Shown: positions 20,039-42,305, counted from the first letter of the stretch. The stretch: 64,000 nucleotides of DNA from Stella sp. (GCF_041913585.1 NZ_JAYSFE010000001.1:67033-131032); one strand, 5' to 3'. Program-made: numbers and translations. The notes: a model not told the origin generated them from the letters alone.

Positions 20039-21205
20039 GTGCCCCGCGGTTCCTATCTCTTCACCAGCGAGTCGGTCGCCGAAGGCCATCCCGACAAGGT
20101 CTGCGACCGGATTTCCGACGCGATCGTCGATCTCTATCTCGGCCACGACCCCCAGGCGCGGGTCGCCGTCGAGACGCTCGCGACGACCAACCACATCGTG
20201 CTCGCGGGCGAGGTGCGCGGCCCCGCCGCGATCACGCCCGCGACGCTCGAGGAGACGGCGCGGGCCGCGGTCCGGGACATCGGATACGAGCAGGAGGGCT
20301 TCCACTGGAAGCACGCCAAGGTCGATGTCCTCGTCCATGCCCAGTCGGCCGACATCGCGGTCGGCGTCGATGCCGCCGGGAACAAGGACGAGGGTGCCGG
20401 CGACCAGGGCATCATGTTCGGCTATGCCTGCCGCGAGACCGAGACCCTGATGCCGGCGCCGATCCACTATGCGCACGCCATCCTGCGGTCGCTGGCCGAG
20501 GCGCGCCATTCGGGCGCGGCACCCGGCCTCGGGCCCGACGCCAAGAGCCAGGTGACCCTGCTCTACGAGAACGGGCGGCCGGTCCGCGCCACCTCGATCG
20601 TCGTCTCGACGCAGCACGCCGCCCATCTCGAGCAGGCGGAGGTGCGCGAGATCGTCCGCCCGCACGTCCTGAACTGCCTGCCGAAGGGCTGGATGTGCAG
20701 CGAGGACGAGTTCTACGTGAACCCGACCGGCCGCTTCGTCATCGGCGGCCCGGACGGCGACTGCGGCCTGACCGGGCGCAAGATCATCGTCGACACCTAC
20801 GGCGGCGCGGCGCCGCACGGCGGTGGGGCCTTCTCGGGCAAGGATCCGACCAAGGTCGACCGTTCGGCGGCCTACGCCGCCCGCTACCTGGCGAAGAACG
20901 TCGTCGCCGCCGGCCTCGCCGACCGCTGCGCCATCCAGGTGTCCTACGCGATCGGCGTCTCCAAGCCGCTGTCCGTCTATGTCGACACCTACGGCACCGG
21001 CATGGAGCACGAGGAACGTCTGGCCACCATCCTGCCTTCCATCGTCGACCTGTCGCCGCGCGGCATCCGGGAGCGCCTGGGCCTCAACCGCCCGATCTAT
21101 GCCCGGACGGCCGCCTACGGGCATTTCGGGCGGGCGCCCGATCCCGACGGCGGCTTCTCGTGGGAGCGCCTCGACCTGGTGGAGGCGATCAAGGGAGCGT
21201 TGTGA
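20039..21205 (+). CDS. metK: S-adenosylmethionine synthase
   Basis: [43 protein letters not shown]. Confidence 0.98.
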
Positions 21206-21360
21206 TGGCGAATGCGCTGCGCGGTGCCCTGCTGCTGGTCCTGACGTTCGCCGCCATGTCCGGCGCGGCCTGCACGCCGCGCTTCGACATGGTGGGCGAG
21301 GAGGCGACCGGCGACCCGGTCGCCAACAAGCGGGTCGGCCAGGAGCCGCGGGCGCAGTAG
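21205..21360 (+). CDS. Hypothetical small lipoprotein (51 aa)
   Basis: ATG overlaps metK TGA, GGAG about 7 nt upstream; basic/hydrophobic signal ending GAA-C23. Confidence 0.6.
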   Translation: MANALRGALLLVLTFAAMSGAACTPRFDMVGEEATGDPVANKRVGQEPRAQ

Positions 21361-21425
21361 CCCCCATCCAGCGATTCCGCCGGCCACGGCGGCCGGCGCC
21401 GTCTGCAGCGATACCGGAGAAAGCG

Positions 21426-22508
21426 ATGATTCGCGCCCTTCCCTCGATCGCGCTCGGTGGCCTCGCCGTCCTGCTGGCCGCCTGCGGGACGCCGCCCCCG
21501 ACCGGCGATCTCACGGGCGAGGCGTCGGTCACGCTCGATCCGGCGACACAGCAGGCGCGGTGGCGGACGCCCGGCTACGTCCCGGCCTCGTCCGGCGTAT
21601 CGGGCGAGGGCATCCACACGATCCGCTTCGCCGCTGTCGTCGGCGACGCGCCGTTCCGTTGTGGCGCCAGCTACGGCGGCATCGGCGTCACCGGCTCGAC
21701 CATCCTCCCGACCGATTTCCGCTTCTTCGTGTCGGAGGTCGCACTGATCGACGAGGCCGGCCGCCAGGTGCCGATGAACCTCGCCCAGGACGGGCGCTGG
21801 CAGCACCAGAACGTCGCCCTGCTCGATTTCGAAGACGGTCAGGGGCCGTGTGCCGGGGGCACGCCGGACCTGCGGCAGTCGGTCACCGGCGCGGTGCCTT
21901 ATGGCCGCTATCGCGGCATCGCCTTCACGCTCGGCGTTCCCGCCCCGCTCAATGTCGGCGCGCCGGCGCTCCCGGCATCGCCGCTCAACGATCCGAACCT
22001 GGCGTGGCCCGCCCCGGGGGGATTCCGCTTCCTCAAGCTCGACATGGCGACCTCCGGCCAGCCGCTCGGTTCCTACGGGGTGGTTCCCTCGACCGTGCCG
22101 GCGCCGCTGCCCGCCTATCCGGGGACGTTTGCCTATCCCGTCATTCCCGCCTACCCGACCGTGACGGGGCCCGTCGGCGCGCTGCCCTACGGGTTCCCGG
22201 TGCATATCGGCGGGGCCGAGTGCACGGGCTACGGCCCGGGCCCCTATACCCCGCCCGGCTGCGGCTTTCCGACCCGCCTCCGCGTCACCCTGCCGGAGTT
22301 CGACACCGACCGGAACGTCGTCGTCGCCGATCTGCGCGCCCTTCTCGTGACGTCCAACGTCGACGTCAACACGCCCGGGACGCCGGCTGGCTGCCAGTCG
22401 ACCTACGGCGACCCGGACTGCGCCGGCGTGGCGGCGATGCTGGGCCTCGCCATGCCGGGGGGCTACACGCCGCCGCAATCCGTCTTCCGGGTCGGCGTCC
22501 AGCCCTGA
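21426..22508 (+). CDS. Divergent MbnP-family (TIGR04052-like) lipoprotein
   Basis: Lipobox LAAC20; IRFAAVVG..C, DFRFFVS, QDGRWQ..VALLDFEDG.GPC, FTLGVP, SPLN, HIGG..C, GC.S..DPDC. Confidence 0.85.
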   Translation: MIRALPSIALGGLAVLLAACGTPPPTGDLTGEASVTLDPATQQARWRTPGYVPASSGVSGEGIHTIRFAAVVGDAPFRCGASYGGIGVTGSTILPTDFRFFVSEVALIDEAGRQVPMNLAQDGRWQHQNVALLDFEDGQGPCAGGTPDLRQSVTGAVPYGRYRGIAFTLGVPAPLNVGAPALPASPLNDPNLAWPAPGGFRFLKLDMATSGQPLGSYGVVPSTVPAPLPAYPGTFAYPVIPAYPTVTGPVGALPYGFPVHIGGAECTGYGPGPYTPPGCGFPTRLRVTLPEFDTDRNVVVADLRALLVTSNVDVNTPGTPAGCQSTYGDPDCAGVAAMLGLAMPGGYTPPQSVFRVGVQP

Positions 22509-22520
22509 CCGGGGTCGCCG

Positions 22521-24485
22521 TCAGATCGCCGGGTGGACGACGCGCAGGCCCGGCAGTCCGACGCAGATATGGCCCATGTCGCGCGCCAGCGCGGCCAGCC
22601 CCTCGGTCTCGAGGTAGCCGCGGTAGGGGGCGGCCGGAAACACCAGCCCGTCGCGGTGGAGATCGCCGCGCACCAGCAGGACCGTGCCACCGACGCCATG
22701 GACCTCGACCGGCCCGGCGTCGGCCGGGAAATCGCCAAGGTGGCGCCGGCCGACCGGATGGAGCGGCAGGCAGACGCCGTCGGCCAGGTTTCGCGGATCC
22801 TCCAGCGGCGCGCCGTCCGCACCCGCCGGCAGGACGAACGTGTTGAGGTCGTAGGTCCGCCCGTCGGGCAGCACGCAGTGCGGCACGACGACGTCGTGGC
22901 CGGCGGCGACAAGCCGCTCGACGAGGTCGGGCGGATAGTCGCAGACATCGGCGTCGATCCAGAGCACCCAGTCCTCGTCCCGGAGCGCGGCGGAGAGCAG
23001 GCGGTTGCGGGACCGGGCGAGCGTCGCGCGGCGCTCGCGCTGGACGCTCGCCTGGTAGCGCGGGCCGGGCGGCAGCCGGTAGCCGAAATCGTGCCGCACC
23101 ATGGTCACCCGCCGGAAGCGCGCCTCGAGCATGGGGCGCCGCGCCTGCAGACGGCCCCAGGTGTCGTCGGTGCTGTCGCTGTCGAGCAGACCGATCGACA
23201 GGCGTGCGGGATCGAGGTCCAGCCGCTCGAGCAATGCGAAATAGCGGTCGAGGTAGCGGGCCGCATTCTTGACCGGGGTCGCCACCAGGATCGACGGCCC
23301 GTCGGGCCGTCCGGCCGCTGCCGGCCGCGCCGGTGCCGGCGCAGCGATCCGTCCCTCGGCCTCCAGGAGCGCGAGGCGGGCGGCGATGCGGGCACCCACG
23401 GCTTCGGGCGCCAGGAGCTCGCGGACCTGCCGCGCGCCCCGCGCGGCGCGGGCCTGGACCCGCTCCGGATGCGCCAGCACCTGCCGCATCAGGTCGGCGG
23501 CGTGGGTGATGCTCGCCTCGGCCCATCGGACGCCCCGGCGGAAGGGCGGGCTGTCCTTGGCCAGGGCGACCAGATCGTAGGCGACGAGCCCGGCCGTGGC
23601 CGGCGACATGAAGTCGAGGTTGCCGGAATGGGCGGTCGCGATCACCGGCCGGCCCGCCGCCATCGCCTCCGCCATCGCCAGCCCGAGCGCCTCGGCGCGG
23701 TGCAGCGAGACGAAGCAGCCGCACGCCCGCACCAGCGCCGCCATCTCGGCATCGGACATGGTGCCGTTCAGGACATGGACGTCCGGCCGGCCGGGGGCCA
23801 GGCGTTCCAGCGCCATGCGGTCGCGGGGCAGCAGCCCGCGCGTCTTCAGCACGAGGCGGACCTGGGGTTGCGGTCGCGGGAAGGCGGCCAGGAAGGCCCG
23901 GATCACGCCCGCCGGATTCTTGCGGTCGAGATTGCTGCGGGCGTCGAAGACGGAAAGGAACGTGAACGGACCCGGCGGAAGGCCGAAGCGCTCGAGGTCC
24001 AAGTCCGCGTGCGCCGGCGTTGGTGCCAGGGCCGGCGGCAGCGGCAGGACCGGAACGTCGACGAACGGCGCCACGCAGGCGGCGCCATAGGCGCTGGGCG
24101 TCCAGATCTCGTCGAACAGCGGGCACATGCGGCGCCATGCCTCGGGCAGCCCGTCCGGGGCTTCCCAGCTCCAGTAGCCGATCGTGTAGGCGCGACAGCC
24201 GGCGCTGGGACCGGGATAGGTGCCGTCGCCGAGGCAGCGGCGGAGGACGTCCGGGTTGGTGGCGACGAGCGCGACCGGCCGGCCGAGCTCGCTGGCGGTC
24301 GGCAGCGGCGACCGCGAACTGCCGGAGGCGGGCCAGGGCAGGTCGACCATCGTCGCGGGCAGCCCGGCGGCGGCGATGGCCGCGGCGAAGCCGCGGCCGG
24401 CCGACCCGAGCCCGATCGGCGCGGACAGGTGCGCGTAGAGCGCGAGCCCGGGGAGCGCGGGTCCGGGAGGGGCGGGTCCGGGCAT
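22521..24485 (-). CDS. Two-domain glycosyltransferase: GT4 (N-term) + Anp1/Mnn9 GT62-like (C-term)
   Basis: GT4: IGYWSWE, FDEIWTPS, RKNP, HRAEALGLAMAE (ExxxxxxxE); GT62-like: RERRATLARSRN, WVLWIDADV, YDLN, GVGG..LVRGDLHRDG..FP, ETEGLA. Confidence 0.85.
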   Translation of the reverse strand: MPGPAPPGPALPGLALYAHLSAPIGLGSAGRGFAAAIAAAGLPATMVDLPWPASGSSRSPLPTASELGRPVALVATNPDVLRRCLGDGTYPGPSAGCRAYTIGYWSWEAPDGLPEAWRRMCPLFDEIWTPSAYGAACVAPFVDVPVLPLPPALAPTPAHADLDLERFGLPPGPFTFLSVFDARSNLDRKNPAGVIRAFLAAFPRPQPQVRLVLKTRGLLPRDRMALERLAPGRPDVHVLNGTMSDAEMAALVRACGCFVSLHRAEALGLAMAEAMAAGRPVIATAHSGNLDFMSPATAGLVAYDLVALAKDSPPFRRGVRWAEASITHAADLMRQVLAHPERVQARAARGARQVRELLAPEAVGARIAARLALLEAEGRIAAPAPARPAAAGRPDGPSILVATPVKNAARYLDRYFALLERLDLDPARLSIGLLDSDSTDDTWGRLQARRPMLEARFRRVTMVRHDFGYRLPPGPRYQASVQRERRATLARSRNRLLSAALRDEDWVLWIDADVCDYPPDLVERLVAAGHDVVVPHCVLPDGRTYDLNTFVLPAGADGAPLEDPRNLADGVCLPLHPVGRRHLGDFPADAGPVEVHGVGGTVLLVRGDLHRDGLVFPAAPYRGYLETEGLAALARDMGHICVGLPGLRVVHPAI

Positions 24486-24496
24486 CGGGGGAACCG

Positions 24497-26290
24497 TCAG
24501 CGGCGGCCGAACAGGCGCTCGATGTCGGCCCGCTTCAACTCGACATAGGTCGGCCGGCCATGGTTGCACTGGCCGCTGTTCGGCGTCGCCTCCATCTGGC
24601 GCAGCAGCGCGTTCATCTCGTCCGCCGACAGCCGGCGACCGGCCCGCACGCTGCCATGGCAGGCGAGCGTGCCCGACACCTGATCGAGGCGCTCGCGCAG
24701 CGAGAAGGTCTGGCCGAGTTCGGCCAGTTCGTCGGCGAGGTCGCGGATCAGCCCCGGAACGTCGGTGTCGCCCAGCATGGCGGGGATCTCGCGCACGACG
24801 ACCGCGCCCGGTCCGAACCCCTCGACGACGAGACCGAGCTCGGCCAGTTCGGCGCCGCGCCGGACCAGCCGGTCCGTCGCCGCCGCCTCCAGCTCGACCA
24901 CGACCGGCAGCAGCAGCGTCTGGCGTCCGACCCCGCTCGCGGCGAGCGCCGCCTTCATGCGCTCGTGGACGAGACGCTCGTGCGCCGCGTGCTGGTCGAC
25001 CAGGACCAGGCCGTCCGCGGTCTCGGCGACGATGTAGGTGTTGAAGAGCTGCCCGCGGGCGGCCCCGAGCGGGCGGTCCGCGGATGGGGCGGCGGTGGCC
25101 GCCGCCACCGGTGCGGCCGGCGGCAGGTCGAGACCGAGGCGCGGGCCGGTGCCGTCGGGGGCCTGGAAGGCCGCAAGCGCCTCGGCCAGGCCGGGCCGGT
25201 ACGGCGCAGCCGGCGGGCCGGGCGCCCCCGGCGTCGTCGCCATCGGTCGGAAGGCGCCGAGGGCGGCCGCGCTGACGGTGGTGCTGGCGCGGTGGCCGGC
25301 GGCGGCGAGCGCATGCCTGAGCGCGCCGACCACGAGGCCGCGGACCAGGCCGCTGTCGCGGAACCGCACCTCGGTCTTGGCCGGGTGGACGTTGACGTCG
25401 ACGCCGTCGGCGGGGACATCGAGGAAGAGCGCCACCGCCGGGTGCCGGTCGCGGGCGAGGACGTCGGCATAGGCGCCGCGCACGGCACCGAAGAGGAGCC
25501 TGTCGCGCACCGGCCGGCCGTTGACGAAGAGGTACTGCTCCGCCGACGTCGCCCGGTGATAGGTCGGCAGGCCGGCGAAGCCGGAGAGCCGCAGGCCTTC
25601 GCGCTCGGCGGCGACCGTCAGCGCGTTGTCGCGGAAGCCCTGGCCCAGCACCTGGCCCAGCCGGGCGAGCCGGCCCTCGGGGCCGTCGCCGCCGGCGGCG
25701 AGGCGCAGCAGGGCACGGCCGTCCTCGGCGACCGCGAAGGCGACGCCGGGGTGGGCCATCGCCAGACGGCGGACGGCGTCCAGCGCGTGCTCGCGCTCGG
25801 TCCTGGGCGACTTCAGGAACTTGAGGCGGGCGGGCGTCGCGTAGAAGAGGTCGCGGACCTCGACCCGGGTGCCCGGCGGATGGGCGGCCGGCCGGGGCGG
25901 CGTCTTGTCGCCGCCTTCGACGCGGATCGTCCACGCCTGGTCGGCGCCGGGCGGCCGGCTGGTGATCGCGAGCCGCGCGACCGCCCCGATCGACGGCAGG
26001 GCCTCGCCGCGAAATCCCAGCGTCGAGACCCGTTCGAGGTCGTCGTCCGGGAGTTTTGAGGTGGCATGGCGCTCGACCGCCAGCTCGAGGTCGGCCGGCT
26101 GCATGCCGCTGCCGTCGTCGACGACGACGATCAGCGACTGGCCGCCGTCGCCGAGCGTCACCGAGACCTGGCGGGCGCCGGCGTCGAGCGCGTTCTCGAC
26201 CAGTTCCTTGACCGCCGCGGCCGGCCGCTCGATCACCTCCCCCGCGGCGATGCGGTTGACGACGACCGACGGCAGCAGGCGGACGGCCAT
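24497..26290 (-). CDS. mutL: DNA mismatch repair protein MutL
   Basis: [43 protein letters not shown]. Confidence 0.98.
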
Positions 26291-38043: not shown

Positions 38044-39486
38044 TCAGGAGGGCGGCAGGACCGGGCCGGGCCGCGGGTCGATCGGCACCCGCGACGCCAG
38101 GCCCAGCGCCTCCTCGAGAAGCGCCGCCGCCGACAGCAGGCCGGCTTCGCCGTTGGCGCGCGCCACCATCTGCAGCCCGACCGGGCGGCCGTCGGCGAGA
38201 AAGCCCGCCGGCAGGGACAGGGAGGCGCAGCGCGTCAGCGTCACCGCATAGGTCATCGACAGCCAGTCGATGTAGTTGTCGAACTCGACTTGGCCGACCT
38301 TGCGCACGGAGATCGTGTCGACGTCGAAGGGCGGCACGATCACCGCCGGCGTCAGCAGCAGGTCGTAGGTCCGGAAGAACCGGCCGACCCGCTGCAGTAA
38401 CGCCGAGCGCGCCCGCACCGCGCGGCCGATGGTGTCGGCATCGAGCGCCATGCCCTTCTCGATGTTCCAGATGACGTCGGGCTTCAACTGGTCGCGGCGG
38501 GTGCGCAGGAGCTCCGCCTTGTCGACGACGAAGAAGGCGGCGCGCAGCGTCTGGAAGATCTCGCGCGCGTCCGAGAGGTCGGGCGCCGCCCGGTCGACCG
38601 GGATGCCCATGGCCTCGAAGCGGCGGGCGGCCTGCTCGGCCACCGCCGCCACTTCGGGATGCACCGGCAGGAAGCCGAGGTCGGGCGAGTAGGCGACGCG
38701 GGCCGGCCGCACCGGATTGCGCACCGCGTCCTGGAAGGGCCTGGCCGGCAGCGGCAGCGACATCGGGTCCTCCGCCGCCTCGCCCGCCATCGCGTCCAGC
38801 ATCAGGGCGACGTCGGCGACGTTGCGCGCCATCGGCCCCTCGATCGCCAGATCGTCGGCCTGGTTGGCGTTCGGCCCGCGGGCGACCCGGCCCGGCGAGG
38901 GCCGCATGCCGACGACCCCGCAGAAGCTGGCCGGGATGCGCAGGCTGCCGCCCAGGTCCGAGCCGCTGGCGAGCCAGACCTCGCCCGTCGCCAGCGCCAC
39001 CGCCGAGCCGCCCGACGAGCCGCCGCAGGTCAGGCTGGTGTTCCAGGGATTGCGGGTCTTGCCGAAGACCGGGTTGAAGGTGTTGGCGCCGGCGCCGAAC
39101 TCCGGGGTGTTGGACTTGGCGAGGACGACGGCGCCCCTGCGCTCCAGCGTCTCGACGACGATGTCGGAGCGGTCGGGCACATGGTCGGCGAAGATCGGCG
39201 AGCCCTGGGTCGAGCGCACGCCACGGACCGGCAGCAGGTCCTTGATCGCCACCGGCAGCCCGGCGAGCCAGCCCGGCGAATCCGCGTCGCCGCCGCGGCG
39301 CGCCAACTCGACCGCCGCCGCCCGCGCCCGCTCCGGACAGCGGGTCGGCAGGGCGTTGACCGCCGGCTCGACCTCGTCCATCCGCGCCAGCGCGGCATCG
39401 ATCAGGTCGGCGGGCTGGAGCTCGCGCGACTTCAGGCGCCGCACCGCCTCGACGGCGGTCATGCGGGTCAGTTCGGAAAGGGGCAT
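38044..39486 (-). CDS. Amidase signature family protein
   Basis: GLPVAIKD, KSNTPEFG, GGSSGGSAVA, GSDLGGSLRIPASFCG. Confidence 0.95.
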   Translation of the reverse strand: MPLSELTRMTAVEAVRRLKSRELQPADLIDAALARMDEVEPAVNALPTRCPERARAAAVELARRGGDADSPGWLAGLPVAIKDLLPVRGVRSTQGSPIFADHVPDRSDIVVETLERRGAVVLAKSNTPEFGAGANTFNPVFGKTRNPWNTSLTCGGSSGGSAVALATGEVWLASGSDLGGSLRIPASFCGVVGMRPSPGRVARGPNANQADDLAIEGPMARNVADVALMLDAMAGEAAEDPMSLPLPARPFQDAVRNPVRPARVAYSPDLGFLPVHPEVAAVAEQAARRFEAMGIPVDRAAPDLSDAREIFQTLRAAFFVVDKAELLRTRRDQLKPDVIWNIEKGMALDADTIGRAVRARSALLQRVGRFFRTYDLLLTPAVIVPPFDVDTISVRKVGQVEFDNYIDWLSMTYAVTLTRCASLSLPAGFLADGRPVGLQMVARANGEAGLLSAAALLEEALGLASRVPIDPRPGPVLPPS

Positions 39487-39597
39487 CGGACGGCGCTCCG
39501 GCAGGCGGGTGGGACGGGCAGTCGAGCAGCGCCCCGGGCGGCCGTCAACTGCCGGGCCGCGTTGCCGGTCTGCCCCGGCCTGTGCCACAGAGGCGCC

Positions 39598-41064
39598 ATG
39601 GACGGGATGCTCGCTCGAACCCTGGCGGCGATCCGCCGGCGCGACTGGGACGCCGCCGCTGCCGCCGCGCTGGCGGCGACCGCGGCGGGCGGGGTCCTGC
39701 CGCGGCCCGCGGTGCCGATGATGACGCAGCTGGTCGGGGCGCTGCGCAAGAGCGGCCGGGCCGATGCCGCCGCGGTGCTCGCCGACCGGGTGATCGCCGG
39801 CGCCCCCGACGAGCCGGCGGCCTGGCTCGCCCGCTCCCACCTCGCCCAGCATCGCGGCGACCTCGCGGCCGCCATCGCCGACACCCGGGCGGCGATGGCG
39901 CGCTCGGCCGACCCGCGGCCGGCGCGCCCGCGGCTGGCCGACCTGCTCTACGAGGCGGGCGAGCTCGAGGCGGCGGCGGCCGAACTGCATGCCGCCCTCG
40001 GCCCCGAAGGCCGGGATCCGGTGCTCCTCGCGCGTTTGGCCGACGTGGCCGACGCCGCCGGGGACACGGCCGGCATGGCGGCGGCGCTCGACCGGGCGAT
40101 GGCGATCCGGCGCGCCGGCGGCGTCGGTTCCCCGGCCCTGCTGATGGCACTCCTCCGGGCCGGCCGCCTCGCCGATGCCGTTCCCGACCTCGACCTGCGC
40201 TGGGCCGCCTCGGGGGCGCCGCCGCGGCCGTTCCGGCAGCCGGTCTGGGACGGCGGCCCCGCCACCGACCGGACGTTGCTGGTGTGGGGCGAGCAGGGGC
40301 TGGGCGAGGAGATCTGGACCGCGGCCCTGCTGCCGGACGTGCTGCCGCGGGTCGGCCGGCTGGTGGTCGAGTGCGCGCCGCGGCTGGCCGCGCTCTTCCG
40401 GCGCTCGTTCCCGGCCGCGACCGTCGTGCCGCGCGGCGCCCCGCCGCACCCCGCGGCCGACGCGGCCGAACTCCCGCCCGCCTGGGTCGGCCTGCTGGGG
40501 GCGCGGGCCGTGCGGCCCGGCCCGCACCCGCCCCACCTGCGGTCCGATCCCGCCGCGGCGGCGGCCCTCCGGGCCCGCTACCGGGCGCTCGGCGACGGAC
40601 CCCTGATCGGCCTTTCCTGGCGCAGCGCCAACCGGCATGCGCCGACGGCCAAGTCGAGCCGGCTCGCCGACTGGGGGGCGATCCTCGGGCGGCCGGCGGT
40701 CTTCCTCGACCTCCAGTATGGCGACACCGATGCCGACCGGGCCGAGGCGGCGGCCGGCGGCTGGGTCGTCCATCGCGACCCGGCGGTCGATCCGCTGGGC
40801 GACCTCGACCACGTCGCCGCCCAGATGGCCGCGCTCGACGCGATCGTCACGGTCAGCAACACCACCGCCCATCTCGCCGGCGCACTCGGGGTCCCCTCGG
40901 CGGTGCTGCTGCCGCGCGGCCGCGGCCAGGTCTGGTGCTGGCTCGACGGCCGCACGCCCTGGTACGCGGGCCAGCGCATCTGCCGGCAGGAGCGGGCGGG
41001 CCGCTGGGAGGCGGCGATCGCCGGCGCAGCCGCCATGCTGGACGGCCTCTTTCCCGGGCCCTGA
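39598..41064 (+). CDS. TPR protein with C-terminal GT9-like glycosyltransferase domain
   Basis: Ala-rich helical repeats, then LLVWGEQGLG, IGLSWRS, LQYG, TVSNTTAHLAGALG. Confidence 0.75.
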   Translation: MDGMLARTLAAIRRRDWDAAAAAALAATAAGGVLPRPAVPMMTQLVGALRKSGRADAAAVLADRVIAGAPDEPAAWLARSHLAQHRGDLAAAIADTRAAMARSADPRPARPRLADLLYEAGELEAAAAELHAALGPEGRDPVLLARLADVADAAGDTAGMAAALDRAMAIRRAGGVGSPALLMALLRAGRLADAVPDLDLRWAASGAPPRPFRQPVWDGGPATDRTLLVWGEQGLGEEIWTAALLPDVLPRVGRLVVECAPRLAALFRRSFPAATVVPRGAPPHPAADAAELPPAWVGLLGARAVRPGPHPPHLRSDPAAAAALRARYRALGDGPLIGLSWRSANRHAPTAKSSRLADWGAILGRPAVFLDLQYGDTDADRAEAAAGGWVVHRDPAVDPLGDLDHVAAQMAALDAIVTVSNTTAHLAGALGVPSAVLLPRGRGQVWCWLDGRTPWYAGQRICRQERAGRWEAAIAGAAAMLDGLFPGP

Positions 41065-41132
41065 AGCCGGCTCGACAAGGCCGGCGGCGCCGGCGCATGG
41101 TGCCGCGACGCTTGCCGGACGAACCTGGATCC

Positions 41133-42305
41133 ATGGCCTATCGCTTGAATTCCCTGCTCGGCGCCGTGGTCGAGCCGCCGATCGCCGAAGTGCATGGCTG
41201 GCTCGCCGGCCACACGCCGCCCCATCCGCTCATCGACATGGCGCAGGCGGTGCCGCGCCACGCGCCGCCGGTCGAGGCGACGCGCCATCTCCAGGAGCGG
41301 CTGGCCGACCCCGAGATCGTGCGCTACGCGCCGATCATCGGCCTGGAGCCGCTGCGCGCGGCCTTCGCCCGGCATCTCGTGGGCGCCTATGGCGGCCGCA
41401 TCGCGGCCGAGAACGTCGCCATCACCGCCGGCTGCAACCAGGCATTCTGCCTCGCCCTGATGACGCTGGCCGAGGCCGGCGACGAGGTGATCCTGCCGCT
41501 GCCCTTCTACTTCAACCACCAGATGTGGCTGGACATGCTGGGCATTCGGGCGGTCCACCTGCCGTTCCGGCCGGACCGCGGCGGGGTCCCCGATCCGGCC
41601 GAGGCGGAGGCACGGATCGGGCCGCGCACGCGCGCCATCGTGCTGGTGTCGCCCAACAACCCGACCGGCGCGGTCTACCCGCCCGATGCCATCGCCGCCT
41701 TCGCCGATCTCGCGCGCCGGAACGGCATCGCGCTGGTCCTCGACGAGACCTACAAGGACTTCCTGCCGGCCGACGGCGCGGCGCACGGCCTCTTCCGCGA
41801 CGACGGCTGGCCGGAGACGCTGATCCAGCTCTACAGCTTCTCCAAGGCCTTCGCGATGGCCGGCCACCGCGTCGGCGCCGTCACTGCCGCCCCGGCGATG
41901 ATCCGGCAGCTCACCAAGGCGATGGACTGCGTCGCCATCTCCGCGCCGCGCATCGGCCAGGAGGCGGCCCTCTACGGACTGGGGCACCTCGCGCCCTGGG
42001 TCGCCGCCAACCGGGCGACGATGCGCGACCGGGTGGCCGTCCTGGAGGCGGCCTTCCGAACCAACGCGTCGGGCTACGAGCTGGTGAGCTGCGGCGCCTA
42101 CTTCGCCTATGTGCGCCACCCCCACCGCGGCCGCACCTCCAAGGAGGTGTCGCGCCACCTCGCGCGGGATCTCGGCATCCTGACGGTGCCGGGCAGCGCC
42201 TTCGGCCCCGGCCAGGAGGATTTCATCCGCTTCGCCTTCGCCAACGTCGGCGCCGAGGCGATGCCGGAGATGGCCCGCCGCCTGGCGGAAAGCCGGATGG
42301 GGTAG
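41133..42305 (+). CDS. Class I/II PLP-dependent aminotransferase
   Basis: DMAQAVP, ITAGCNQAF, SPNNPTG, LDETY, YSFSKAFAMAGHRVG. Confidence 0.93.
   Translation: MAYRLNSLLGAVVEPPIAEVHGWLAGHTPPHPLIDMAQAVPRHAPPVEATRHLQERLADPEIVRYAPIIGLEPLRAAFARHLVGAYGGRIAAENVAITAGCNQAFCLALMTLAEAGDEVILPLPFYFNHQMWLDMLGIRAVHLPFRPDRGGVPDPAEAEARIGPRTRAIVLVSPNNPTGAVYPPDAIAAFADLARRNGIALVLDETYKDFLPADGAAHGLFRDDGWPETLIQLYSFSKAFAMAGHRVGAVTAAPAMIRQLTKAMDCVAISAPRIGQEAALYGLGHLAPWVAANRATMRDRVAVLEAAFRTNASGYELVSCGAYFAYVRHPHRGRTSKEVSRHLARDLGILTVPGSAFGPGQEDFIRFAFANVGAEAMPEMARRLAESRMG

Follow-up and report, generated by a model that had tools for sequence, protein, structure and literature searches.

An orphan MbnP-family lipoprotein of Allostella-like bacteria with an altered metal-site region and no adjoining MbnH

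The closest described relative of the protein considered here is MbnP of Methylosinus trichosporium OB3b, in which the kynurenine residue Kyn174 derives from Trp174 in a WxW motif (PMC11951088). Binding of copper by MbnP depends on this kynurenine, and its formation has been assigned to the partner protein MbnH (PMC11951088). A Trp-derived kynurenine at the copper site and a dihaem peroxidase partner are also features of MopE* and CorA of methanotrophs (PMC11951088, PMC3621798). MbnP/MbnH pairs are widespread, and a lineage in which the MbnP fold has long persisted in the absence of MbnH offers a natural experiment on the residues of MbnP that serve the MbnH reaction. Here, we describe such a lineage, starting from a single gene in a DNA stretch of 64,000 nucleotides from Stella sp. 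(GCF_041913585.1, NZ_JAYSFE010000001.1:67033-131032), which is called the window below and whose first letter is position 1. The original prediction had been that this gene encodes an MbnP-family lipoprotein with an intact fold, a rewired metal site and no MbnH. The features of the locus are as follows.

20039..21205, plus strand: metK, the conserved upstream neighbour (context; identified by synteny)
21205..21360, plus strand: small lipoprotein ORF of 51 aa, whose ATG overlaps the metK TGA
21426..22508, plus strand: MbnP-like lipoprotein gene, an intact ORF of 360 codons (360 aa) plus stop
21426..21485, plus strand: predicted signal peptide with the lipobox LLAAC and Cys20 as the lipidation site; it starts MIRALPSIALGGLAVLLAAC
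21486..21617, plus strand: clade-specific N-terminal extension, aa 21-64, TPPPTGDLxGE...LDPATQQARWRTPG, predicted to be disordered yet conserved
21948..21956, plus strand: LNV175-177 in place of LNH, at the equivalent of M. trichosporium His157 (His in 108/108 canonical sequences, Val or Ile in the clade)
22002..22025, plus strand: AWPAPGGF193-200 in place of FWxWxxGY, with W194 kept and the second Trp replaced by A196
22065..22190, plus strand: Tyr/Pro-rich insertion, aa 214-255, variable in length, pLDDT <55
22203..22214, plus strand: HIGG260-263 for canonical HLGS, with the His kept (equivalent of M. trichosporium His207) and Ser changed to Gly
22389..22400, plus strand: GCQS322-325 for canonical GCMS, with the equivalent of M. 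trichosporium Met269 changed to Gln
22521..24485, minus strand: two-domain glycosyltransferase (GT4 + Anp1/GT2), 654 aa (context; Pfam Anp1 5e-42, Glyco_trans_1_4)
24497..26290, minus strand: mutL, the conserved downstream anchor (context; identified by synteny)

The site pattern visible in this list is shared by the proteins P0001-P0010, which are 58-100% identical and come from Allostella (formerly Stella) humosa, A. vacuolata and alphaproteobacterial MAGs; P0011 and P0012 are more divergent members of the same clade. The ORF in the window is preceded by GGAG about 7 nt 5' of its ATG. Lipobox residues L17, A19 and C20, judged by eye, are invariant in all 12 clade members, and, because of this lipoprotein signal, the window protein would be exported and lipidated at Cys20. 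Its membership of the MbnP family, as originally predicted, is confirmed by scores well above the cut-offs with both NCBIfam TIGR04052 'MbnP_like_WxW' (205.1 bits versus 140) and Pfam PF20243 MbnP (90.5 bits versus 27), and by the sole sequence match in the PDB, namely 7L6G, which is MbnP of Methylosinus trichosporium (E 8.6e-25). An AF2 model built on an input alignment of 140 homologues had a mean pLDDT of 79.9, with values above 90 at residues ~61-170, 81-85 in the site loops (171-200) and mostly 88-98 at 281-360. Foldseek comparison of this model with the PDB retrieved six 7L6G chains (E ~5e-20, TM(target) 0.78-0.81), and the next match had an E value of 0.07. Taken together, the HMM scores, the 7L6G sequence match and the Foldseek result make the assignment secure, and we consider the family and the predicted fold of the protein to be beyond doubt. 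Two segments, at residues 21-60 and 215-255, were modelled with low confidence. The N-terminal extension (aa 21-64) has no equivalent in canonical MbnPs in the alignment and is modelled with a pLDDT of only 45-60, yet identity within it reaches 80-93% between the closest members, a degree of conservation like that of the core. In this it behaves as a conserved linear motif would, and not as a spacer. The Tyr/Pro-rich insertion, on the other hand, is 35-55% identical and differs in length within the clade.

The best 120 homologues, comprising 108 canonical sequences and the 12 clade members, were aligned. The canonical proteins carry the motifs LNH, FWxWxxGY, HLGS and GCMS, in which positions 177 (His), 194 (Trp), 196 (Trp) and 260 (His) are 100% conserved and position 324 (Met) is 99% conserved. 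The motifs LNV177, W194-P-A196, H260 (HIGG) and GCQ324S had been read from the window sequence with every residue number correct. Likewise, the claim that the scaffold and all six cysteines of the mature protein are retained holds, as Cys 79, 142, 266, 279, 323 and 332 align with invariant Cys columns. The WxW motif is absent from the window protein (W194-P-A196), its second Trp being replaced by Ala or Pro across the clade. When positions of the folded core were searched for residues that are at least 80% conserved in canonical sequences and at least 90% conserved in the clade but differ between the two, ten switches were found (177 H to V, 190 T to P, 193 F to A, 196 W to A, 200 Y to F, 201 K to R, 261 L to I, 263 S to G, 264 T to A and 324 M to Q), all of which fall in the four site motifs. 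They cost the clade two putative soft ligands, aromatic bulk and hydroxyl groups, and the alignment of the clade with the canonical core revealed no newly conserved His, Cys or Met. The altered motifs are themselves invariant across 10 to 12 clade members, AWPAPGGF being so in P0001-P0009 and Q324 in all 12.

A clade profile was then compared with 1.84 billion 50%-identity representatives, among which 1,726 family members were found at E <= 0.001. P0001-P0010 corresponded to a single representative, P0003 (647 bits), the next match scoring 380 bits and canonical proteins at most 318 bits; judged by these scores, the variant clade is coherent and rare. Every member examined agreed with the predicted subfamily of intact MbnP fold, altered site and no adjoining MbnH.

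The genomic position of the gene is equally uniform. From its 5' side, the order in the clade is fur, two acyltransferases, miaB, phoH, ybeY, corC, lnt, an HTH gene, metK, the 51-aa ORF and the MbnP-like gene; convergent to these lie, in some genomes, the GT4+Anp1 glycosyltransferase, followed by mutL, pgi, two M16 peptidases, DUF3035, lspA and ileS. This metK to mutL setting is common to A. humosa, A. vacuolata and the MAGs at every clade locus that could be read, and the P0011 gene stands tail-to-tail with mutL. The MbnP-like gene is thus inherited vertically at a fixed housekeeping position in Allostellaceae-like Rhodospirillales. The glycosyltransferase, whose stop lies 12 nt from that of the MbnP-like gene, has a counterpart at the corresponding position in four related MAG lineages (~620-985 aa, two contigs being incomplete). 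As a possible partner it was set aside because of its convergent orientation, its absence from both Allostella isolates and the lack of any N-terminal signal sequence or hydrophobic segment on inspection by eye.

Clade contexts were taken from contigs found through the clade proteins that they encode, and canonical loci from a listing of contigs of GTDB species representatives, which included at least one clade member. In the variant loci, no dihaem (two-CxxCH) ORF was found in 20-64 kb around the gene on 14 contigs, three of which end too close downstream to be judged. By contrast, 76 of the 79 canonical loci among the matches listed had a dihaem ORF immediately downstream or fused; in the remaining three, the dihaem ORF was frameshift-split in one, the contig ended too early in another, and the third was without it, so that a dihaem partner was present in 77 of the 78 assessable canonical loci among these matches. 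Several arrangements in the family were seen in passing. At L075 (1942-4029), the mbnH that accompanies a canonical MbnP (HWWH-L variant) is divided between two frames, so that CASCH and CHHCH stand in successive ORFs, owing to either a frameshift or an assembly error. L052 (6149-8167) and L058 (9851-11857) contain apparent MbnP-MbnH fusions, that is, ORFs of ~670 aa with two CxxCH motifs; P0058 and P0069 are MbnPs fused to cytochrome c domains (PF13442/PF00034), and P0241 (562 aa) is a tandem double MbnP.

The original prediction had also stated that no MbnH, TonB receptor or copper gene lies in the window, and this stood up to three kinds of search. No CxxCH motif occurs in any six-frame ORF of at least 60 aa in the 64 kb, tblastn of the window with five MbnH sequences gave no match, and none of the annotated genes of the 64 kb was a copper gene, a cytochrome c or a TonB-dependent receptor; ~45 of the 63 predicted genes were annotated by Pfam, and the others through their synteny with the Allostella loci. 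The window instead holds housekeeping genes (among them those for histidine biosynthesis, murJ, trpS, fur, the miaB-metK block, mutL, pgi, ileS, ribF, NAD-GDH, thrS and a sigma factor), and in the 64 kb as in the orthologous loci a copper, methanobactin or TonB context is absent. As to regulatory elements, no promoter or terminator consensus was found in the sequence near the MbnP-like gene, the stability of an intergenic hairpin at 21378-21398 did not exceed that of shuffled sequence (z -0.25), and Rfam gave no match at the gathering threshold in the 64-kb window and no riboswitch upstream of metK. Elsewhere in the window, 39562-41061 (plus strand) encodes a predicted protein of 500 aa with a weak, sub-threshold TPR_Slam match; it overlaps a long reverse ORF (38044-41229), and with very GC-rich ORFs overlapping here on both strands, it is uncertain as a gene call.

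These findings led us to propose, with moderate confidence, that the window protein is a lineage-specific, MbnH-independent descendant of MbnP in which neither kynurenine nor the canonical Cu(I) site is formed any more and which would serve as an envelope-anchored binding module. MbnH would have been lost in the lineage, after which the Kyn/Cu(I) pocket would have been remodelled instead of being left to decay. This remodelling, read from the alignment, would comprise the changes H to V, F to A, second W to A, Y to F, S to G, T to A and M to Q, and would leave the pocket hollowed and more apolar. Since putative soft ligands were lost and no new His, Cys or Met was gained, the canonical Kyn/Cu(I) chemistry is most likely gone, and the product would most likely make no kynurenine and bind no Cu(I) in the canonical way. 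The module would bind its ligand through the hollowed pocket, in which W194, H260 and Q324 remain, together with the new N-terminal motif. In sequence and predicted fold the protein is an MbnP homologue, but it is probably not a functional MbnP, because the WxW motif, an adjacent MbnH and a copper context are all absent. What counts against this proposal is that W194, H260 and the potentially ligating Gln324 are retained and invariant in P0001-P0010, and that Gln coexists with MbnH in canonical members.

It is precisely these residues on which a second reading is founded, according to which the protein has remained an MbnP-type copper protein: W194 would be oxidised by MbnH, another peroxidase or an oxidant encoded elsewhere, and copper would be held by Kyn194, His260 and Gln324. 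Gln is known to replace Met as a copper ligand in stellacyanin-type sites. We regard this reading as rather unlikely, although several observations speak for it, the first of which concerns the identity of the kynurenine precursor. In the 7L6G chain, the two Trp residues of WxW have indices 149 and 151, and Cys23 of this chain aligns with Cys48 of P0125, an 87%-identical protein of 325 aa, which gives an offset of 25 to the precursor numbering. Moreover, in close homologues 325-327 aa long the first Trp is at 174-176, and in none of them does the second Trp fall at 174. The offset and the homologue numbering therefore indicate that Trp174, and hence Kyn174, corresponds to the first Trp of WxW, equivalent to W194 of the window protein. 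This agrees with an abstract by Manesis from 2021, which is said to name the 'first tryptophan in a conserved WxW motif' as the residue that becomes kynurenine. Thus, the original idea of a rewired WxW site was right in that the second Trp is lost, but the precursor position itself is kept in P0001-P0010. In P0011 and P0012, however, W194 is missing too, so these two proteins cannot form kynurenine at that position.

Position 324 bears on the same question. Among ~150 family representatives it is Met in 115, His in 8, Gln in 7, Glu in 4 and Thr in 2, all of them in otherwise canonical (H-W-W-H) proteins, and both of the two GCQS members that were checked, P0270 and P0294, have MbnH directly downstream. 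The Met-to-Gln change predicted as part of the rewiring is therefore real but, as Gln occurs in MbnH-paired canonical MbnPs, it is not diagnostic of the orphan clade; the variability of this supposed Met ligand in MbnH-paired proteins suggests subfamilies with differing metal-site chemistry. The prediction had named as its own possible refutation that such substitutions might be common in canonical MbnPs, which was partly borne out for Met to Gln, whereas the losses of the LNH His and the second Trp are rare and define the clade. Of the two invariant canonical His residues, either of which is a candidate copper ligand, the H177 equivalent is lost in the clade and H260 is kept. If His207, and not His157, ligates copper in M. 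trichosporium, the primary sphere of the clade would be nearly intact. Co-loss patterns in rare variants hint that H260 pairs with position 324, in numbers too small to be used, and a putative beta-hairpin pairing H177 with W194 was dropped, as the AF2 secondary structure consists of loops there.

A further argument for copper binding without an adjacent partner comes from P0266, an independent lipoprotein variant that likewise has neither the LNH His nor the second Trp. The first Trp, the HxGS His and the Met are all present in it, and three His have been added around the Trp. Its gene (1706-2635 on Logan contig L093) is the last in the arrangement exbB <- -> DUF2946(CruR) - PCuAC - MbnP-like, and no CxxCH motif or MbnH was found on this 2.8-kb contig. 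Operons headed by CruR are copper operons (PMC9426467), and the occurrence of P0266 in one of them suggests that the LNH His and the second Trp serve MbnH-dependent maturation, not copper ligation. The same is suggested, from two cases only, by the loss of both residues in the MbnH-less clade and, independently, in P0266. P0266 thus shows what a partner-less yet copper-dedicated variant looks like, and the window clade differs from it in having no Met, no added His and no copper context. The last of these points, that no copper gene lies near the MbnP-like gene, weighs against a copper site matured in trans, as do (i) the lack of MbnH in the variant loci and in the 64-kb window against 77 of 78 canonical pairs that are adjacent, (ii) the loss of a His that is otherwise 100% conserved, together with several second-sphere residues, (iii) the existence of P0011 and P0012 without W194 itself and (iv) the dependence of copper binding on kynurenine, whose formation is assigned to MbnH (PMC11951088).

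A third reading gives the 51-aa ORF the place of MbnH: the remodelled pocket, the N-terminal motif or both would bind the 28-aa lipopeptide encoded upstream as the new partner. The small ORF is conserved in A. humosa, A. vacuolata and two MAGs, where it is co-inherited with the MbnP-like gene and, counting five lineages in all, lies immediately upstream of it. Among 15 sequences its mature 28 residues, CTPRFDMVGEEATGDPVANKRVGQEPRAQ, scarcely differ, while its signal peptide varies; the small ORF has no match in Pfam and falls into only 11 clusters among 5.8 billion, so that it is taxonomically as restricted as the MbnP-like gene. Furthermore, the lineages of P0011 and P0012, in which the small ORF is absent, are those with the most drifted site. 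We nonetheless find this arrangement improbable. It is deduced from adjacency and co-distribution, and lineage-specific orphan genes co-occur trivially. In addition, translation of the small ORF is coupled to that of metK, and a metatranscriptome contig spanning the 3' end of metK and the small ORF ends just past the latter, at 21365, which means that the small ORF and the MbnP-like gene may belong to separate transcripts. Two short metatranscriptome contigs inside the MbnP-like gene, with roughly half the depth of the metK/small-ORF contig, are weak evidence that this gene is transcribed. By the metatranscriptome and contig searches, the organism of the window belongs to communities of activated sludge and wastewater.

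A bolder form of the proposal, to which we attach little credence, is that in Allostellaceae-like bacteria the MbnP fold has been repurposed as a copper-independent, lipid-anchored receptor. A new ligand would be recognised by the hollowed former Kyn/Cu pocket together with the new N-terminal motif, and the nearly invariant upstream 28-residue lipopeptide would be the most specific candidate for it. If true, a previously undescribed two-lipoprotein envelope module would stand in place of the MbnP-MbnH pair. As for the original description of the locus as a candidate for an undescribed system, what was found amounts to one gene with a small adjoining ORF, not to a system, in one narrow lineage. 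On the whole, the original interpretation is borne out in part but went too far, since the precursor Trp remains and the Met-to-Gln change is ordinary.

Selection on the gene was assessed by dN/dS, which was 0.14 between A. humosa and A. vacuolata and 0.23-0.24 between the window and each Allostella species, values at larger distances being inflated by saturation (GC3 ~90%). The MbnP-like gene is under purifying selection. Between the window and A. humosa it is 73% identical, as against 84-93% for metK, mutL and pgi (metK, 93%); the folded core is 78% identical, and the extra change lies mostly in the YP-rich insertion. That the gene is a functionless, decaying relic of a former MbnPH pair, as its missing partner, its several missing invariant residues and its faster evolution might suggest, is highly improbable given an ORF intact in every lineage, six retained Cys, a dN/dS of 0.14-0.24, altered motifs that are themselves invariant, faster evolution largely confined to the YP-rich insertion, and a position and lipobox conserved over family-level divergence.

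Returning to the MbnH-independent binding module that we favour, its significance is limited by the size of the clade, which forms one 50%-identity cluster, and the function given here is a proposal made from sequence. Nevertheless, the clade helps to tell residues needed for MbnH-dependent maturation from those needed for metal binding. It would also mean that the MbnP fold can be reused outside copper homeostasis, and that the automated label 'MbnP family copper-binding protein' is probably wrong for the clade.

Compared with MbnP of M. trichosporium OB3b (7L6G), the window protein belongs to the same family by HMM, shares the predicted fold (TM 0.81) and the six Cys, and is likewise a secreted envelope protein. 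The invariant scaffold common to both includes F68, R99, W125-Q126, D134-F135-E136, Y162, P172, N176, G199, F202 and H260. The window protein differs in that MbnH (TIGR04039) is not adjacent, WPA stands for WxW, Val for the LNH His and Gln for Met269; several second-sphere residues are smaller or apolar, the protein is lipid-anchored, and a conserved 44-aa N-terminal motif and the YP-rich insertion are added. The context differs as well, being housekeeping in the window and copper or methanobactin in M. trichosporium. In MopE* and CorA, as in canonical MbnP, the concept is that of a Trp-derived Kyn-Cu site and a dihaem partner, the latter being absent for the window protein; their fold is unrelated, and they have no sequence or structure match with it. 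The canonical proteins P0270 and P0294 have GCQS in common with the window protein but keep LNH, WxW and HLGS, with MbnH immediately downstream. Finally, P0266 resembles it as a lipoprotein in which the LNH His and the second Trp have disappeared and the first Trp and the HxGS His persist, but P0266 retains the Met, has three additional His and belongs to an operon, beside exbB, that is recognisable as one for copper uptake.
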